Source: Actinomycetota bacterium
GTDB taxonomy: Bacteria; Actinomycetota; Thermoleophilia; Miltoncostaeales; Miltoncostaeaceae
Assembly (NCBI GenBank): GCA_040757755.1
Contig: JBFLWO010000001.1
Location: forward strand, 1 to 25,999
Length of the DNA: 25,999 nt
Reading direction: 5' to 3'
A program made the translations under genes and the position numbers. Shown piece after piece: positions 19,158 through 25,999 of this stretch; the first letter of the stretch is position 1, and each line of letters begins with the position of its first letter. Under the pieces are notes generated by a model. It saw only the letters and a list, made by a program, of their open reading frames with translations, ran no database searches and was not told where the DNA came from.

Positions 19158-19673
19158 ATGGTGCCCCGTCTCGCCGCCGCAGGCGCCTGTGCCCTGGCGC
19201 TCGGCGTCCTCGCCGGGTGTGGTGGGGATGGGTCCGGCTCCTCCGCGACCCCGGACGCCGGCGCGGCGGTCGCCGCGGCCGCGCCCGCGCCCCAGGTGTC
19301 CCGGCCGACCGCGCCGGGAGAGCCGGTGCGTCCCGGCCCCGGCACGCCCCGCCCGTTCGCCGCCGCCGTGCAGAAGGGCAAGGCGGTGGTCGTCGCGTTC
19401 CTGATGCCGGGCGTCGCCGACGACGAGGCGGTGCGCAAGGCGCTGCGCGTCGCCCGCGTCGCGAAGGGCGCGCGCGGCGTCGCGTTCTTCACCTACGACC
19501 TGCCTCAGGCGCGGCGGTTCGGCGACCTGCCCGAGCTCCTCGACGTCACCGGCACGCCGACCGTCGTGGTGATCGGCCGTGACCGGCGCGTCGCCAACGT
19601 CTTCCGCGGCCTGACGGACGCGGACATCGTGCGGCAGGCGGTCAGCGACGCGAAGGACGCGCCCCCGGCCTGA
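19158..19673 (+). CDS. Lipoprotein with a thioredoxin-like fold lacking CxxC
   Basis: RBS GGAGG and lipobox LAGC. Domain GKAVVVAFLMPGVADDEAVRKAL...VAFFTYD...LDVTGTPTVVVIGRDRRVANVFRG follows the Trx beta/alpha order with the cis-Pro motif. Confidence 0.7.
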   Translation: MVPRLAAAGACALALGVLAGCGGDGSGSSATPDAGAAVAAAAPAPQVSRPTAPGEPVRPGPGTPRPFAAAVQKGKAVVVAFLMPGVADDEAVRKALRVARVAKGARGVAFFTYDLPQARRFGDLPELLDVTGTPTVVVIGRDRRVANVFRGLTDADIVRQAVSDAKDAPPA

Positions 19674-19702: not shown

Positions 19703-21175
19703 ATGCCGCCGTATCCGCGCGAGGCGATGGCCCACCTGGCGAGCCCGGCCGGCGCCGGCCCGATGGACGCCCCCGACGCGACGGGGGAGTCGGGCGCCGC
19801 GTCCTGCGGCGACGTCGTCCGCATCCAGCTTCGCATCGCCGGGGGGAGGGTGCGGGAGGCGCGGTTCCTCGCGTTCGGCTGCGGCGCCGCCACCGCCGCG
19901 GCGAGCGCCGCCTGCGCGCGGCTCGACGGGGCCCCCCTCGACGACGCCCTGAGGCTCGACGCCGCCACCCTCGACCGTGACCTCGGCGGCCTCGGCGCCG
20001 CCCGCCGGCACGGGCCGGAGCTCGTGGAGGACGCCGTCGCCCGCGCCCTCGAGCAGTGGTACTCCGCGCGGCTCGGCGCGACCGGCCTGCCGCTCGCCCG
20101 CGGCCGGGTCGTCGTCGGCATGAGCGGCGGCGTGGACAGCGCCGTCGCCGCCATGCTGCTGCGCGACGCCGGCTACGACGTCGTCGGCGTCACCATGCGC
20201 CTGTGGCACGACCCCTCCGCCGTGGCCGCCGAGCGGTCCTGCTGCTCCCCCGAGACGGTGCGCCTCGCGCGGGCCAGCGCCCATGCCCTCGGCATCCCGC
20301 ACCTCACGATCGACGCCGTCGAGACGTTCCGCCGCGGCGTCGTCGACGCCTTCGCGCAGGGCTACCGCGCCGGCCTCACGCCGAACCCCTGCGTCACCTG
20401 CAACGGCGAGGTGCGCTTCCGCGTGCTGGCCCAGGCGGCCGCGCTGCTCGGCGCCCGCCGCCTGGCCACGGGCCACTACGCACGCGTCGCCCCCGCCGCC
20501 GGGGGCACGGCCGTCATCGCCCGGGCGGCGCACGCCGACAAGGACCAGAGCTACATGCTGGCGCGCCTCGGCGGGCGGCTCCTCGAGCGCTGCGCCTTCC
20601 CCCTCGGGGAGCTGCGCAAGGACGAGGTGCGCGCCATGGCGGCCGCCGCCGGCCTGCCCGCCGCCCAGGCCGTGGAGAGCCAGGAGGTGTGCTTCGTCGG
20701 CGAGAGCGGCTACGTGCCGTTCCTGGAGCGCACCTACGGGATGCGGCCCGCCCCCGGCCCCGTCGTCGACCCCGCCGGGCGCATCCTCGGGGAGCACGCC
20801 GGCTACTGGCGCTACACCGTGGGGCAGCGGCGCGGCCTGGGCATCGCGGCGAGCGACGGCCCCCTCTACGTGCTGCGCGCGGACCGCGACACGAACACCG
20901 TCGTCGTGGGGCCGCGGGAGGGCCTCGCCGTCCACCGGATCCTCCTCGACGACGCCGTCGTGCACGAGCCGCTCGACGAGGGGCCCGTGGAGGTGCGGGT
21001 GCGCTACCGGGGACGGCCGCTCAGGGGCATCGTGGCCCGCCGCGGCGGGCGGCTCGCCCTGACCCTGGAGGACCCCGCCGACGGGGTCGCCCCCGGGCAG
21101 ACCGCGGCCCTGTACCGTCAGGGGCGCCTCGTGGCCGGCGGGACCATCGCCGGGTCGACCGACGTGGAGGTGTGA
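19703..21175 (+). CDS. mnmA: IscU/NifU-like scaffold domain fused to tRNA U34 2-thiouridylase MnmA
   Basis: Residues 1-120: GAASCGDVVRIQLRI...FLAFGCGAATAAAS...RRHGPELVEDAV. From residue about 135: MSGGVDS, SCC, TPNPCVTCN, ATGHYAR, KDQSYML, SQEVCF, YTVGQRRGLG, APGQTAALY. One uninterrupted frame. Confidence 0.92.
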   Translation: MPPYPREAMAHLASPAGAGPMDAPDATGESGAASCGDVVRIQLRIAGGRVREARFLAFGCGAATAAASAACARLDGAPLDDALRLDAATLDRDLGGLGAARRHGPELVEDAVARALEQWYSARLGATGLPLARGRVVVGMSGGVDSAVAAMLLRDAGYDVVGVTMRLWHDPSAVAAERSCCSPETVRLARASAHALGIPHLTIDAVETFRRGVVDAFAQGYRAGLTPNPCVTCNGEVRFRVLAQAAALLGARRLATGHYARVAPAAGGTAVIARAAHADKDQSYMLARLGGRLLERCAFPLGELRKDEVRAMAAAAGLPAAQAVESQEVCFVGESGYVPFLERTYGMRPAPGPVVDPAGRILGEHAGYWRYTVGQRRGLGIAASDGPLYVLRADRDTNTVVVGPREGLAVHRILLDDAVVHEPLDEGPVEVRVRYRGRPLRGIVARRGGRLALTLEDPADGVAPGQTAALYRQGRLVAGGTIAGSTDVEV

Positions 21176-21178
21176 CGG

Positions 21179-21667
21179 GTGGACATCGACTGGGCCGACG
21201 TGCTGCGCGGCGCGCTGGCCTTCTTCCTCGTGATCGTGGGCCTCGGCATCGCATGGGCGTGCCTGCGGCTCGGCGGCCTGTTCGGCCGCGTCTCGAAGAC
21301 CGTCAACCGGGTGACCGACGAGGTCGTCCCGATCCTGTCCAAGGCGCAGACCACCATGGACGGCATCAACACGGAGATCGGACGCGTCGACGAGATCATG
21401 CAGACCGCCGTCGCCACCACGAAGGGCGCGGAGAAGGCCGTCGGCACCGTCTCGAAGGCCGTGTCCGCCCCCGTGAAGCGCCTCTCCGGACTCGCCGCCG
21501 GGATGCAGGAGGCCGTCGCCACCTTCAAGTCGCGGCGCGCCGCCGAGCGCGCGGCCCGCGAGGAGGCCCAGGCCGCGGAGGCCGTCGCCGCGGCGCGCGA
21601 CGCCGCCGACGCGGTCACCGCCCCGCAGGACGTCGTCGCCCCGGCCGCCGCCGGCGCGGACGGATGA
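21179..21667 (+). CDS. DUF948-like (YoxC/YtxG-type) membrane-anchored helical protein
   Basis: N-terminal TM segment then heptad-like helices (VSKTVNRVTDEVVPILSKAQTTMDGINTEIGRVDEI). Position upstream of alaS-ruvX. Confidence 0.75.
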   Translation: MDIDWADVLRGALAFFLVIVGLGIAWACLRLGGLFGRVSKTVNRVTDEVVPILSKAQTTMDGINTEIGRVDEIMQTAVATTKGAEKAVGTVSKAVSAPVKRLSGLAAGMQEAVATFKSRRAAERAAREEAQAAEAVAAARDAADAVTAPQDVVAPAAAGADG

Positions 21668-21963: not shown

Positions 21964-23124
21964 GTGACGCACCTTCGACGCCTTCAGGCGGCCGCCGCCG
22001 CCCTCGCCATCGCCGCCCTCGCCGCGTTCGCGGCGGCCTGCTCCAGCGGCGAGGCCGCGCACACGCCGGGTCCGGCGGTGGCGGTGCAGGACGACCACCT
22101 CGCCGTCCCCGACTCGGACATCGAGAGCCGCCTCGACATGATCGCGGCGACGGGGGCGAAGGTCACCCGCGTCGATCTCTTCTGGCGGGACGTCGCCCCC
22201 GCGCAGCCCGCCGACGCCGCGGACCCCGCCGACCCCGCGTACCGCTTCGACCGGGCCGACGCCATCATGCGCGGGCTGGCGCAGCGCGGCATCACCCCGA
22301 TCGTCGCCGTCTTCAACACCCCCGAGTGGGCGGCCGGCGGCCTCGACCCCGACGTCGTGACGGCGTACAACAGCCTGCCGCCGAAGGACCCCGGCGCGTA
22401 CGGGGACTTCATGGAGGCCGTCTCCACCCGCTACTCCGGCAGCTTCGAGGACGCCTCCGGCCGCCGCCTGCCGCGCGTGCGCCACTGGGAGATCTGGAAC
22501 GAGCCGAACCTCTCCCTCTACCTCACCCCGCAGATCGGGCCGGACGGCTCCTACGCCTCCGCCCGCACCTACGCGGAGCTGGTGCGCGCCGCGTACCCCG
22601 CGGTGAAGCGCGGCGGCGGCGCCGGCACCACGGTCATCGTCGGCGCCGGCGGGCCGCGCGGGCGCACCGGCAAGGCCGCCGTGGGCGCGTTCGACTGGCT
22701 CGCCGCGCTCCGCACCGCGAACGTCCCCCTCGACGCGTACTCCCAGCACATCTACCCGGCGGCGGCGCCGACCGTCGACACCGACGCGAAGCCCAGCTGG
22801 AGCAGCGTCGACGAGATCCTCCACGAGCTCGACACCTGGAAGACCGGTCTGCCCCTCTTCATCACCGAGGCGGGGTACACCACGAAGGACACGCCGTTCC
22901 GCAGCTCGCACGTCACCGAGGAGCAGCAGGCGGAGTACCTGGGCGACATCTTCCGCCTGCCGCAGCTGCAGGACCCGCGGGTGCGCGCCGTCGTGTGGTT
23001 CAACCTGCAGGACAACGCGAACTGGCCCGCCGGCCTGCTGCGCGAGGACGGCTCCGAGAAGCCGAGCTACGACGTGTTCCGCAAGGCGGCGGACAACCCG
23101 CAGCAGCGCTCCCTCACCGGCTGA
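21964..23124 (+). CDS. Clan GH-A glycoside hydrolase lipoprotein (GH39/GH5-like)
   Basis: Lipobox-like FAAAC, acid/base motif WEIWNEPN, nucleophile motif LFITEAG. Confidence 0.8.
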   Translation: MTHLRRLQAAAAALAIAALAAFAAACSSGEAAHTPGPAVAVQDDHLAVPDSDIESRLDMIAATGAKVTRVDLFWRDVAPAQPADAADPADPAYRFDRADAIMRGLAQRGITPIVAVFNTPEWAAGGLDPDVVTAYNSLPPKDPGAYGDFMEAVSTRYSGSFEDASGRRLPRVRHWEIWNEPNLSLYLTPQIGPDGSYASARTYAELVRAAYPAVKRGGGAGTTVIVGAGGPRGRTGKAAVGAFDWLAALRTANVPLDAYSQHIYPAAAPTVDTDAKPSWSSVDEILHELDTWKTGLPLFITEAGYTTKDTPFRSSHVTEEQQAEYLGDIFRLPQLQDPRVRAVVWFNLQDNANWPAGLLREDGSEKPSYDVFRKAADNPQQRSLTG

Positions 23125-23204: not shown

Positions 23205-25772
23205 ATGACGACCCACGAGATTCGCCGCCGCTTCCTCGACTTCTTCGCGGCGCGGGACCACCTCGTGGTCCCGTCCGCCTCCCTGGTCCCGTTCGAGGAC
23301 GACCCCTCGGTCCTCCTCACCATCGCCGGGATGCAGCCGCTGAAGTCGTACTTCCTCGGCACCGCCCAGCCGCCCGCGCCGCGCATGGCGAGCTGCCAGA
23401 AGTGCTTCCGCACCCTCGACATCGACCAGGTGGGGCGCACCGCCCGGCACCTCACGTTCTTCGAGATGCTCGGCAACTTCTCCATCGGGGACTACTTCAA
23501 GGACGACGCGATCCGCTTCGGCTGGGAGCTGTCGACCGAGGTCTTCGGCCTCGACCCCGAGCAGATCTGGATCACCGTGTTCGAGGGGATGCCCGGCGTT
23601 CCCGCCGACGACGAGGCGATCGAGCGGTGGGTGGAGCTCGGCGTGCCGCGCGACCGGATCCAGGCGCTGGGGGAGAGCGAGAACTTCTGGAAGGCCGGCC
23701 CCACCGGGCCGTGCGGCCCGAACAGCGAGCTGTACATCGACCGGGGACCCTCCTTCGGCCCGGACGGCGGCCCCGCCACCGGCACCGACCGGTTCCTCGA
23801 GTACTGGAACCTCGTGTTCATGCAGTACGAGCGCCACCAGGACGGCACCCTCACGCCGCTCCCGGCGAAGAACATCGACACCGGCGCGGGCCTCGAGCGG
23901 ATGGCGGCCCTGCTGCAGGGCAAGTCCTCCGTGTTCGAGACCGACGCCTTCCGGCCCCTGATCGACTGGGCGGAGCGGGCGAGCGGCCGCGCCTACGGCA
24001 CCGCGCAGCGCGACGACCGCGCCCTGCGCGTCCTCGCCGACCACGGGCGCGCCATGACGTTCCTCGCCGCCGACGGCGTGCGGCCCGGCAACGAGGGGCG
24101 CGACTACATCCTGCGCCGCATCATCCGGCGCGCCGTCAGCGAGGCGTCCCACCTCGGCCTCGAGCCCGGTAGCGTCGTCGACCTGTCCGCCGAGGTCGTC
24201 GCGCTGTGGGGCGACGCGTACCCGGAGCTTCCCGCCTCCGCCGCCGACGTCGCCGACGTCCTCGGCACCGAGGCGGAGCAGTTCGCCCGCACCCTCGCGC
24301 AGGGGCAGCGCCTCCTCGCCGACGTGATCGAGCGCTCCGCCGCCGGGGGCACCGTGTCCGGCGATGACGCGTTCCGCCTGCACGACACGTACGGGTTCCC
24401 CCTCGACCTCACCGTGGAGGCGGCGTCCGAGCGCGGCCTCACCGTCGACACCGACGGCTTCGAGAGCCTGATGGGGGAGCAGCGCCGCCGCGCCCGGGCC
24501 GCGGCCCGCAAGGGCGGCGACGCCGCCGCGGAGCGCGCCCAGGCGATGGCCCACGGCACCCCGGCGCAGTTCGTGGGCTACGACGAGTGGGAGGTGCGCG
24601 CCCGCGTCACGGCCGTCGACGAGCTCGGCGGCGGCGAGGCCCTCCTCAAGCTCGACCGGTCCCCCTTCTACGCGCAGGGCGGCGGCCAGGTGTCCGACGC
24701 CGGCACGATCTCGGGGGACGGCCTGCAGGCGACGGTCACGGAGGTGTACCGCGTCGGCGACGACCAGGTGCTCCGCGTGCGGGTCGAGTCCGGCGCCCCG
24801 GCCGTCGGGCAGGAGGTCGACGCGCGCGTCGACGCCCGCGCCCGCCGCGCCACCCAGGCGAACCACACCGCCACCCACGTGCTGAACTGGGCGCTTCGCA
24901 GCGTGCTGGGCGACGGGGTGCGGCAGGCCGGCTCGTACGTGGGTCCCGACAAGCTGCGCTTCGACTTCACGTACCGCGGGCGCCCCGGCGGCGACGAGCT
25001 CGACCGGATCGAGCGCATGGTGAACCAGCGCGTCGCCGAGGACGCCCCCGTCCGCGCCGAGGTGATGGCGCGCGACGAGGCCACCGCCCGCGGCGCGATC
25101 GGCCTGTTCGAGGAGAAGTACGGCGAGCGGGTCCGGGTCCTGTCCACGGGGGACTACAGCATGGAGCTGTGCGGCGGCACGCACGTGTCCCGCACCGGGG
25201 AGATCGGGCCGTTCGTGATCGCCTCCGAGGGCAGCACCGGCGCGGCGACCCGCCGCATCGAGGCCCTCACCGGCATCGCCGCCCTCGACTGGTACCGCGC
25301 CCGCCAGGAGGAGCTGGAGGAGCGCCTCGAGGCACGGGAGCGCCGCGTCAAGGAGCTCGAGGCGGAGCTGAAGCGTGCGAAGGCGACCCGCGTCGACGCG
25401 TCCGACGTCGCCGCCGCGGCGGTCGAGGAGGGCGGCATCCACATCGTGGCGCAGGAGGTCGAGGCCGGGGGGCAGGAGGAGCTCCTCGCCGTGTCCGACC
25501 GGGTGCGCACCGCCCTGGGCCCCGGCACCGCCGTCGTCCTCGGCACCCGGTCCGACGGCAAGGTGCTCCTCGTCGCGACGGTCGACGACGAGGCCCTCGC
25601 CCGCGGCCTGTCCGCGCACGACGTGATCCGCGAGGTGGCGCCGCTCGTCGGCGGCGGCGGGGGAGGCCGGCCCGGCATGGCCCGCGCCGGCGGGAAGGAC
25701 CCGTCGGGCCTGCCGGCGGCGATGGCCGCGGCCATGGAGCACCTGCGCCGCCGGGCCGCCGGCGGCGAGTGA
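23205..25772 (+). CDS. alaS: Alanine--tRNA ligase
   Basis: From ATG 23205: MTTHEIRRRFLDFF, HLTFFEMLGNFS, GPCGPNSE, IDTGAGLER, LHDTYGFP, NHTATH, ELCGGTH, GGGGG. Confidence 0.98.
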   Translation: MTTHEIRRRFLDFFAARDHLVVPSASLVPFEDDPSVLLTIAGMQPLKSYFLGTAQPPAPRMASCQKCFRTLDIDQVGRTARHLTFFEMLGNFSIGDYFKDDAIRFGWELSTEVFGLDPEQIWITVFEGMPGVPADDEAIERWVELGVPRDRIQALGESENFWKAGPTGPCGPNSELYIDRGPSFGPDGGPATGTDRFLEYWNLVFMQYERHQDGTLTPLPAKNIDTGAGLERMAALLQGKSSVFETDAFRPLIDWAERASGRAYGTAQRDDRALRVLADHGRAMTFLAADGVRPGNEGRDYILRRIIRRAVSEASHLGLEPGSVVDLSAEVVALWGDAYPELPASAADVADVLGTEAEQFARTLAQGQRLLADVIERSAAGGTVSGDDAFRLHDTYGFPLDLTVEAASERGLTVDTDGFESLMGEQRRRARAAARKGGDAAAERAQAMAHGTPAQFVGYDEWEVRARVTAVDELGGGEALLKLDRSPFYAQGGGQVSDAGTISGDGLQATVTEVYRVGDDQVLRVRVESGAPAVGQEVDARVDARARRATQANHTATHVLNWALRSVLGDGVRQAGSYVGPDKLRFDFTYRGRPGGDELDRIERMVNQRVAEDAPVRAEVMARDEATARGAIGLFEEKYGERVRVLSTGDYSMELCGGTHVSRTGEIGPFVIASEGSTGAATRRIEALTGIAALDWYRARQEELEERLEARERRVKELEAELKRAKATRVDASDVAAAAVEEGGIHIVAQEVEAGGQEELLAVSDRVRTALGPGTAVVLGTRSDGKVLLVATVDDEALARGLSAHDVIREVAPLVGGGGGGRPGMARAGGKDPSGLPAAMAAAMEHLRRRAAGGE

Positions 25773-25999
25773 AGGTCCTCGCCCTGGATCACGGGGCGAG
25801 CCGGACCGGGGTGGCGGTGAGCGATCCCACCGGGACGCTGGCCCGTCCCCTGCCCGCGATCCGCCGGGTGGACTCCCCGGCGGGGCGCGCCGTCCTCGCC
25901 GACGTCGTCGCGCGGGAGGCGCCGGAGCGGATCGTCGTCGGGGACCCCCGGCACCTGTCCGGGGCGCGGGGCCGTCAGGCGAAGGAGGCCGCCGCGTTC
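25769..25999 (+). CDS. ruvX: RuvX/YqgF pre-16S rRNA nuclease (partial, runs off the window)
   Basis: GTGA overlap with the alaS stop. VKVLALDHGASRTGVAVSDPTGTLARP...IVVGDP. Confidence 0.92.
   Translation, partial: MKVLALDHGASRTGVAVSDPTGTLARPLPAIRRVDSPAGRAVLADVVAREAPERIVVGDPRHLSGARGRQAKEAAAF

Follow-up and report, generated by a model that had tools for sequence, protein, structure and literature searches.

An IscU-like domain with a remodeled scaffold site fused to the tRNA thiolase MnmA in Thermoleophilia

The stretch of DNA analyzed here (the window) comprises the first 25,999 nucleotides of contig JBFLWO010000001.1 from a metagenome-assembled genome (MAG) of the family Miltoncostaeaceae (Actinomycetota; Thermoleophilia; GenBank assembly GCA_040757755.1), and the gene under study encodes an IscU-like domain fused to the tRNA thiolase MnmA. 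Translation of 19703-21175(+) gave a single uninterrupted frame of 490 amino acids (aa) with 0 stops, as the original prediction, made from the sequence and its open reading frames (ORFs), had described. That prediction also held that there was no plausible restart and that the only ATG near the junction lay inside the MSGGVDS motif. M140, within M-S-G-G-V-D-S, is indeed the sole Met near the junction; the valines immediately preceding it are encoded by GTC and so provide no alternative start, and a restart at M140 would cut off strand 132-139 of the AlphaFold2 (AF2) model. The N-terminus is conserved in relatives. A spacer of 29 nt without a clear Shine-Dalgarno sequence separates the upstream stop from the start of the gene, which the original prediction took to be leaderless, and a promoter and terminator scan around the gene found neither. 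Codon-position G+C was typical for real genes of the window (GC3 of 0.98, on a contig with 75% G+C). All previously named residues were correctly placed (C35-G36-D37, F58-G59-C60-G61, C71, R101-R102-H103-G104, C180-C181, C230/C233, and C330), and one more Cys, Cys297, is present. Features of the gene and its neighbors are listed in Table 1.

Table 1. Positions of features in and around the NifU_N-MnmA fusion gene, numbered from the first nucleotide of the window
Feature	Position	Strand	Basis or remark
Whole gene, NifU_N (IscU-like)-MnmA fusion, 490 aa	19703..21175	+	Single ORF; Pfam and NCBIfam; AF2 model
IscU-like N-domain, aa 4-120	19712..20062	+	Pfam NifU_N (PF01592), E 5e-22; 78.8 bits (cut-off, 22); Foldseek IscU
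C35-G36-D37, first scaffold Cys and Asp	19805..19813	+	C35 in 93/93 and G36 in 91/93 fused proteins
C60, second scaffold Cys	19880..19882	+	Kept in 61/61 close and 25/32 distant sequences
C71, family-specific extra Cys near end of helix 61-74	19913..19915	+	60/61 close, 4/32 distant; helix from AF2 model
H103-G104, His kept and third scaffold Cys replaced by Gly	20009..20014	+	Both in 60/61 close sequences
Linker, aa 122-133	20066..20101	+	Block pLDDT 96-97 (ordered); least conserved segment, pairwise identity 0.56 in close family
MnmA PP-loop/HUP catalytic domain, aa 135-333	20105..20701	+	Pfam tRNA_Me_trans, E 2e-64; PP-loop residues invariant
PP-loop S141-G-G-V-D-S146 (ATP binding, adenylation)	20123-20140	+	Invariant in 93 fused sequences
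C180-C181, CC motif of C-type MnmA	20240..20245	+	Invariant, 93/93; motif defined in PMC7025502
C230-x-x-C233, predicted [4Fe-4S] ligands	20390..20401	+	Invariant; homologous to T. thermophilus MnmA Cys105/Cys108
C330, predicted third cluster ligand	20690..20692	+	Invariant; homologous to T. thermophilus MnmA Cys200
MnmA PRC-barrel and C-terminal beta-barrel domains, aa 341-482, tRNA-binding part	20723..21148	+	Pfam tRNA_Me_trans_M and _C; Foldseek 2hma, 2det
Predicted lipoprotein, 171 aa, upstream of fusion	19158-19673	+	L-A-G-C lipobox; 51% identical to counterpart in relative L013
DUF948 protein, downstream of fusion	21179-21667	+	Start 4 nt past fusion stop
GH5/GH39-like glycosidase	21964-23124	+	Weak Pfam matches; between the DUF948/70-aa genes and alaS; no L013 counterpart there
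alaS region	23205-25999	+	Frame open from 22326; homology start ~23205, end 25772

The C-terminal part of the protein is a complete MnmA. Pfam placed tRNA_Me_trans at residues 135-333, tRNA_Me_trans_M at 341-403, and tRNA_Me_trans_C at 426-482, so that the three-domain body (HUP, PRC barrel, and C-terminal barrel) is present, and the protein passed both the NCBIfam equivalog NF001138 (362.2 bits versus a cut-off of 284) and TIGR00420 (293 bits versus a cut-off of 237). The CC-CxxC-C motif is complete and invariant across the fused set. In Thermus thermophilus MnmA, Cys105/Cys108 and Cys200 are the cluster ligands (Shigi et al. 2020, PMC7025502), the CC-CxxC-C type needs a [4Fe-4S] cluster (PMC7025502), and sulfur passes directly from IscS or SufS to the enzyme in vitro (PMC7025502); the earlier assignment of the MnmA part to the CxxC+C type, which uses such a cluster, is thus well founded. 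The fusion gene is the only MnmA gene in the window's genome, and its product is predicted to be the organism's only MnmA, a C-type, [4Fe-4S]-dependent enzyme that makes 2-thiouridine at U34 of tRNA.

The N-domain is IscU-like in both sequence and fold. Foldseek matched it to the IscU chains 4eb7_C, 7c8m, and 3lvl (TMt of 0.81-0.90, rmsd of 1.1-2.2 Å), while the SufU chain 5xt5_C aligned less well (rmsd of 4.2 Å, TMt of 0.66), placing the domain closer to IscU than to SufU. The MnmA half matched 2hma and 2det (TMt of 0.89-0.90), and no entry in the PDB spanned both parts in the Foldseek search. An AF2 model built from a 93-row alignment reached a pLDDT of 94.8 and a pTM of 0.92, with an ordered linker; in this model, the two domains are confidently placed relative to each other. 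A matching two-domain arrangement was predicted for other fused clusters, with TM of 0.85-0.93 over 462-478 residues.

The fused N-domains have nonetheless diverged from canonical U-type proteins, scoring 66-79 bits on Pfam NifU_N versus 159-173 bits for unfused or NadA-fused domains. The window's N-domain reached none of the three equivalogs, those for IscU (TIGR01999, 59.2 bits versus 192.4), NifU (TIGR03419, 71.6 bits versus 187.9), and SufU (TIGR01994, 32.5 bits versus 92.5, on which the genome's true SufU scored 152.9). Three conserved cluster-ligand Cys are expected of a scaffold, but the third position here is G104, where the unfused NifU of relatives has H-C. The Asp that follows the first Cys and the His that precedes the third are both retained (D37 in 61/61 and H103 in 60/61 sequences of the close family, defined below). 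Together with the NifU_N match and the IscU fold matches, the Gly at position 104 supports the original description of an IscU-type domain with its third Cys replaced. An L-P-P-V-K sequence before H-C is the chaperone-recognition motif of IscU. No such motif is present in the window protein, in which the region before and through H103-G104 reads G-G-L-G-A-A-R-R-H-G.

Residues were tallied over 93 fused proteins, comprising 61 close sequences (the window's family) and 32 distant ones. Sixty of the 93 share the window's pattern of C-D-C-H-G at positions 35/37/60/103/104, and a further 12 have C-D-C-H-A. Only one keeps the canonical C-D-C-H-C, seven have C-D-C-x-C, in which the His is lost and the Cys kept, and six show other single patterns. 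The second Cys, C60, is lost in the remaining seven, all among the 32 distant sequences, and five of these keep C35 alone. D37 is retained in all 61 close sequences and in 21 of the 32 distant ones. Among the N-domain residues, C35 alone is present in all 93 fused proteins, and it persists in five from which D37, C60, H103, and C104 are all missing. Loss of the N-domain Cys among relatives was to have counted against the original prediction, and for the first scaffold Cys no such loss was seen. Within the close family, C35, G36, D37, G59, C60, C71, R101, H103, G104, and D110 are each found in 60-61 of the 61 sequences, including the two sites (H103-G104 and C71) whose conservation had been singled out beforehand. 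Pairwise identity within this family is about equal for the N-domain and the MnmA part (0.70 versus 0.73), which indicates that the N-domain is under purifying selection rather than decaying. C71 was considered as a replacement third ligand and judged unlikely, as it is family specific and lies 11 residues along helix 61-74 from C60.

Comparison with characterized U-type proteins gives meaning to the positions that are kept. In mammalian ISCU, the Fe(II)/Zn(II) ligands are Cys35, Asp37, Cys61, and His103, and Cys104 is a free persulfide receptor (review PMC8924461, citing Gervason 2019). The four mononuclear-metal ligand positions of ISCU coincide exactly with residues that the window's family holds constant (C35, D37, C60, and H103), and the receptor position is Gly. 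In SufU, Zn is bound by Cys41, Asp43, Cys66, and Cys128 (PMC8918507); the first of these, Cys41, is freed by ligand swapping with SufS His342 and then accepts sulfur (PMC8918507). Compared with this four-ligand site, the fused domain has C35, D37, and C60 in place, and its fourth ligand position is H103. C35 is retained throughout, also where a metal site is no longer possible, and this suits a carrier Cys better than a cluster or structural site.

The fusion is widespread. All of the 120 nearest database proteins carry PF01592 and the MnmA domains (66-79% identity, 457-510 aa), two of them under the name "MnmA [Thermoleophilia bacterium]," and an exhaustive search of 50%-identity representatives recovered ~20 further fused clusters at 35-50% identity. 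The ESM Atlas held at least three NifU_N-MnmA clusters among the nearest matches, all from Actinomycetota, and AFDB held one fold cluster covering both domains (TM of 0.89/0.91). Families are given here by our labels, f1 being that of the window. A six-frame search of 200 genomes of Thermoleophilia found full-length, single-frame matches in f1 and f4 (many in each) and in f5, f6, f7, f8, f10, f11, and f12. Outside this class but within the phylum, the fusion occurs in f23, where carriers include several complete genomes of 3-4.4 Mb, and in f62. None of the statements made here depends on genomes flagged as unpublished. The fusion is therefore conserved across the class, in most families of Thermoleophilia and at least two further lineages. 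Shared by the 120 nearest proteins and by whole-genome matches in many families, it is genuine and not the product of a lost stop or an assembly artifact; some relatives do encode the two parts separately, as the original prediction had thought might undo it, but more than 100 carry the fusion. The suggestion that the fusion might be novel needs qualifying, since the architecture is already common in public databases as plain MnmA and is not confined to the window's genome. We found no published description of a NifU/IscU-MnmA fusion in the literature searched, which left out most subscription journals. Apparent fusions common in low-GC Bacillota were rejected because the long tblastn matches were adjacent nifU and mnmA ORFs. 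One AFDB cluster match, A0A2V6TR05, is a 568-aa "Multifunctional fusion protein" with similarity only over the MnmA part (query residues 132-490); judging from this protein, MnmA seems to be fused to other partners elsewhere.

The separate genes point to the source of the fusion. In the sister family f2, iscS-nifU-mnmA are three separate genes, and the f2 NifU is canonical (K-M-H-C-S motif, 172 bits on Pfam). The order nifS-nifU-mnmA, also as separate genes, was found in Bacillota (Roseburia faecis, Clostridium cibarium, Anaerostipes, and Desulfosporosinus) and beyond them in Ignavibacteria, Terriglobia, Trichloromonas, and low-GC Actinomycetota MAGs, often preceded by an Rrf2 regulator. This adjacency, which the original prediction had noted for Clostridia, also occurs in other phyla, and the fusion derives from this widespread operon. 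In a Bacillota MAG and in Roseburia faecis (L079:2998-4590 and L090:2977-4521), nifU and mnmA lie in the same frame and are split by the nifU stop codon alone, so that these genes are one substitution short of a fusion. An IscS-like gene lies directly upstream of the fused gene in f23, and f10 retains a truncated one.

Maximum-likelihood analysis of the MnmA domain (62 rows, SH-aLRT support) recovered three well-supported fused clades, namely, Thermoleophilia (98), f23 (100), and f62 together with low-GC metagenomic proteins (99), the last of which was nested among unfused genes. P0134, a fused protein with the canonical H-C motif, was sister to the unfused f2 gene (support of 100). Because the supported branches force at least three changes of fusion state, the fusion probably arose more than once. 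The MnmA of f3 (L031:4000-5262(+), genome G003) has an IscU-like remnant of ~75 aa that aligned to the C-terminal helices, and Pfam found no NifU_N in this protein; since f3 nests inside a fused clade, the remnant reflects a secondary loss.

Canonical NifU_N domains are also attached to other proteins. In another genome of the same phylum (G408, family f39), one with a K-M-H-C-S motif (159 bits) is fused to the quinolinate synthase NadA (L019:4738-6105, +), another three-Cys [4Fe-4S] enzyme, near an IscS-like gene (12-1136) and an unfused MnmA (1780-2961). A second (162 bits) is joined to a flavoprotein of the Pyr_redox_2 (thioredoxin-reductase-like) type (L018:1410-2744, +; genome G260, family f42) directly downstream of an IscS-like gene (L018:230-1399). 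In family f34, proteins of ~310 aa combine a 180-aa N-terminal region, for which Pfam gave no match, with a NifU_N domain of 173 bits (L021:5539-6480, -, and L020:3623-4555, +), and their genes overlap or abut an IscS-like gene.

The gene order in the window is FTCD-like, hisS, aspS, secreted Spondin_N-like, 171-aa lipoprotein, fusion, DUF948, 70-aa ORF, GH5/39-like, alaS, and ruvX. The same order, minus the glycosidase, was found in another member of Thermoleophilia (L013), and the lipoprotein and DUF948 flanks are both syntenic in relatives. The lipoprotein matched no Pfam family. The DUF948 gene is probably cotranscribed with the fusion. Downstream, the ruvX-like part lies in a different frame from alaS and runs to the end of the window; in L013, alaS and the ruvX-like part were called as one 987-aa gene. 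The neighborhood hisS-aspS...mnmA...alaS-ruvX-mltG is conserved between the window and the class relative, and we take this order to resemble that of Gram-positive bacteria.

As stated in the original prediction, no cysteine desulfurase gene lies in the window; all Aminotran_5 matches of the genome are on other contigs. The genome encodes SufS-SufU on contig C69 and a diverged NifS-like protein, common to other f1 genomes, on C292. An IscS/NifS-like desulfurase on the 2.7-kb contig C399 (G000; L002:1204-2373, -; 431 bits to NifS) lacks an orthologue in the remaining f1 genomes and shares 54% identity with an f4 gene; as the MAG consists of 582 contigs, this one may have been misbinned. Lacking an f1 orthologue and most resembling f4 genes, it was dropped as a partner for the window's family. 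In f5, f7, and f8 genomes (97-100% complete), SufS is the only convincing cysteine desulfurase, and no IscS-type match was found in the genomes searched of f11, f12, and most of genus g4 of f1. Genomes with the fusion and only SufS have exactly two U-type sequences, the SufU beside SufS and the fused domain. In f4 and f6, a canonical iscS-nifU pair accompanies the fusion as separate genes. Since SufU sits beside SufS and f4 and f6 keep a separate iscS-nifU, the fused domain is a dedicated paralogue and not the general scaffold of the cell. Several lineages leave it no ultimate desulfurase other than SufS, and with only SufS seen in f5, f7, f8, f11, f12, and g4, a U-type acceptor on MnmA would be useful.

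Set beside C-type MnmA of T. thermophilus, the fusion shares the PP-loop, the CC motif, the CxxC+C ligands, and the three-domain body, and presumably also s2U34 synthesis that depends on a [4Fe-4S] cluster and draws its sulfur from a cysteine desulfurase; it differs by a conserved N-terminal IscU-like domain of ~120 aa. That domain has the fold, the aligned metal ligands, and, in descent from the operon nifU, the ancestry of the IscU/NifU N-domain (ISCU, Archaeoglobus fulgidus, and Escherichia coli IscU), but it has Gly for the third Cys, which is both persulfide receptor and cluster ligand, and an altered LPPVK region, and it is covalently tied to one client enzyme. With SufU it would have in common a U-type fold that is not a scaffold, a four-ligand metal site, and a first Cys (C35 here) as acceptor, and, like SufU, it is found in several lineages whose sole desulfurase is SufS. 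In contrast to SufU, it has His rather than Cys at the fourth ligand position, and the window's genome has a true SufU as a gene of its own beside SufS. The Bacillus subtilis YrvO-MnmA and E. coli IscS-TusABCDE-MnmA systems follow the same logic of a private sulfur channel from desulfurase to MnmA (PMC13066941). In the fusion, however, the intermediary would be the fused U-type domain, with no Tus-type relay and no adjacent dedicated desulfurase.

Taken with the observed architecture, conservation, origin, and residue pattern, these comparisons suggest a mechanism in which C35 is a cis-acting persulfide relay feeding the [4Fe-4S] site of MnmA, a prediction that we hold at about an even chance. 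After fusion, the N-domain would have ceased to be an ordinary three-Cys cluster scaffold. It would dock a cysteine desulfurase, either SufS or the NifS-like enzyme where present, and C35, the equivalent of the SufU acceptor Cys41, would take the sulfane sulfur and transfer it in cis to the open cluster iron of MnmA (C230, C233, and C330). Sulfur at the cluster iron would then attack the adenylated U34. We infer the metal binding, the C35 persulfide, the desulfurase partner, and the passage of sulfur to the MnmA site. That C35 alone is universal, and is kept without all other ligands, favors a single catalytic or carrier Cys. The original prediction had proposed either a cluster loader or a persulfide relay; the relay gains from the invariance of C35 in all 93 proteins, including the five without other ligands, and the cluster loader is weakened.

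Several observations weigh against a C35 relay. Fusion genomes with SufS alone also encode a free-standing SufU, and SufS therefore does not require the fused domain as its only acceptor. The f3 enzyme retains only the ~75-aa remnant, which suggests that MnmA can work without the domain. Because the N-domain is IscU-like by sequence and fold and not SufU-like, the analogy to SufU is one of presumed function, and in ISCU itself the receptor is the third Cys, which is absent from the window protein. The strict conservation of D37, C60, and H103 in the window's family implies that the metal site matters too, and it suits a scaffold or structural role equally well.

It is also conceivable, though rather unlikely, that the domain performs no chemistry of its own and is a Zn-stabilized IscU fold that recruits a desulfurase, whose loop would deliver sulfur, or that stabilizes MnmA or tRNA binding. 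IscU is the natural binding partner of IscS, which is encoded adjacently in f23; the four Zn/Fe ligands are retained in the window's family and the receptor Cys is lost; the interdomain AF2 model is rigid and confident; and f3 dispenses with most of the domain. A structural metal site should, however, keep all four ligands together, whereas C35 alone is universal, and in many fusion genomes an IscS-type enzyme that could be docked is absent.

Cys2-His-Asp sites are in principle able to bind a [2Fe-2S] cluster, and an in-cis Fe-S scaffold or repair unit, in which a cluster on C35, C60, and D37/H103 would load or repair the labile MnmA [4Fe-4S] cluster, would exploit the same four residues that this family keeps. 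A canonical scaffold was ancestral to the domain, and the fused P0134 still has H-C and is sister to the unfused f2 gene; a canonical NifU_N is also fused to NadA in the same phylum, and in situ cluster assembly has been described for the B. subtilis NifS-NadA pair (review PMC13066941). For the ancestral state, a cluster scaffold gains credibility from the NadA fusion and from the young fusion with the canonical motif. For the present-day domain we consider it unlikely, given that the third Cys is gone in most fused lineages, that C60 is also lost in 7 of the 32 distant members, five of which retain only C35, that NifU_N scores drop from 159-173 bits to 66-79 bits, that the chaperone-recognition region is altered to G-G-L-G-A-A-R-R-H, and that f4 and f6 have their own separate canonical iscS-nifU.

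An artifact or decaying relic, whether by lost stop, misassembly, or nonfunctional appendage, is very improbable and essentially refuted by distribution, ligand conservation, and N-domain identity: the window does come from a fragmented MAG, and the in-frame genes of L079 and L090, one stop apart, imply that read-through fusions are easily made, but the fusion occurs in hundreds of independent assemblies, complete genomes included, with an N-domain as conserved as MnmA, ligand residues fixed in 60-61 of 61 sequences, and a confident fold prediction.

The persulfide relay through C35 can be taken a step further. An IscU-derived domain may, convergently with SufU, have become a metal-dependent, single-Cys sulfurtransferase fused to its client, letting SufS feed wobble thiolation directly; we offer this more specific version tentatively, as possible rather than probable. 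If true, it would add a third sulfur route to MnmA beside the Tus relay and YrvO, and the domain would be a natural separation-of-function variant of IscU, with the metal site kept and the receptor Cys removed.

The sulfur route to MnmA and the catalytic role of its Fe-S cluster are still argued (PMC11784392, PMC8053098, PMC7025502). The fusion is a variant on known MnmA and IscU and not a new kind of system, and databases list it as plain MnmA. Its repeated formation is nevertheless strong genomic evidence that the U-type protein and C-type MnmA work together, also where nifS-nifU-mnmA are separate genes; should the sulfurtransferase reading hold, the independent nifU-mnmA fusions would act as a "Rosetta stone," pointing to service of MnmA by free NifU/IscU as well. 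The fused proteins provide a one-polypeptide system for the hand-over of sulfur or clusters to a PP-loop thiolase, and the natural ligand series from H-C through x-C and H-G/A to C35 only amounts to a set of ready-made mutants with which to dissect the residues of IscU. For the organisms themselves, the fusion shows how tRNA thiolation may be supplied in SUF-only Actinomycetota.

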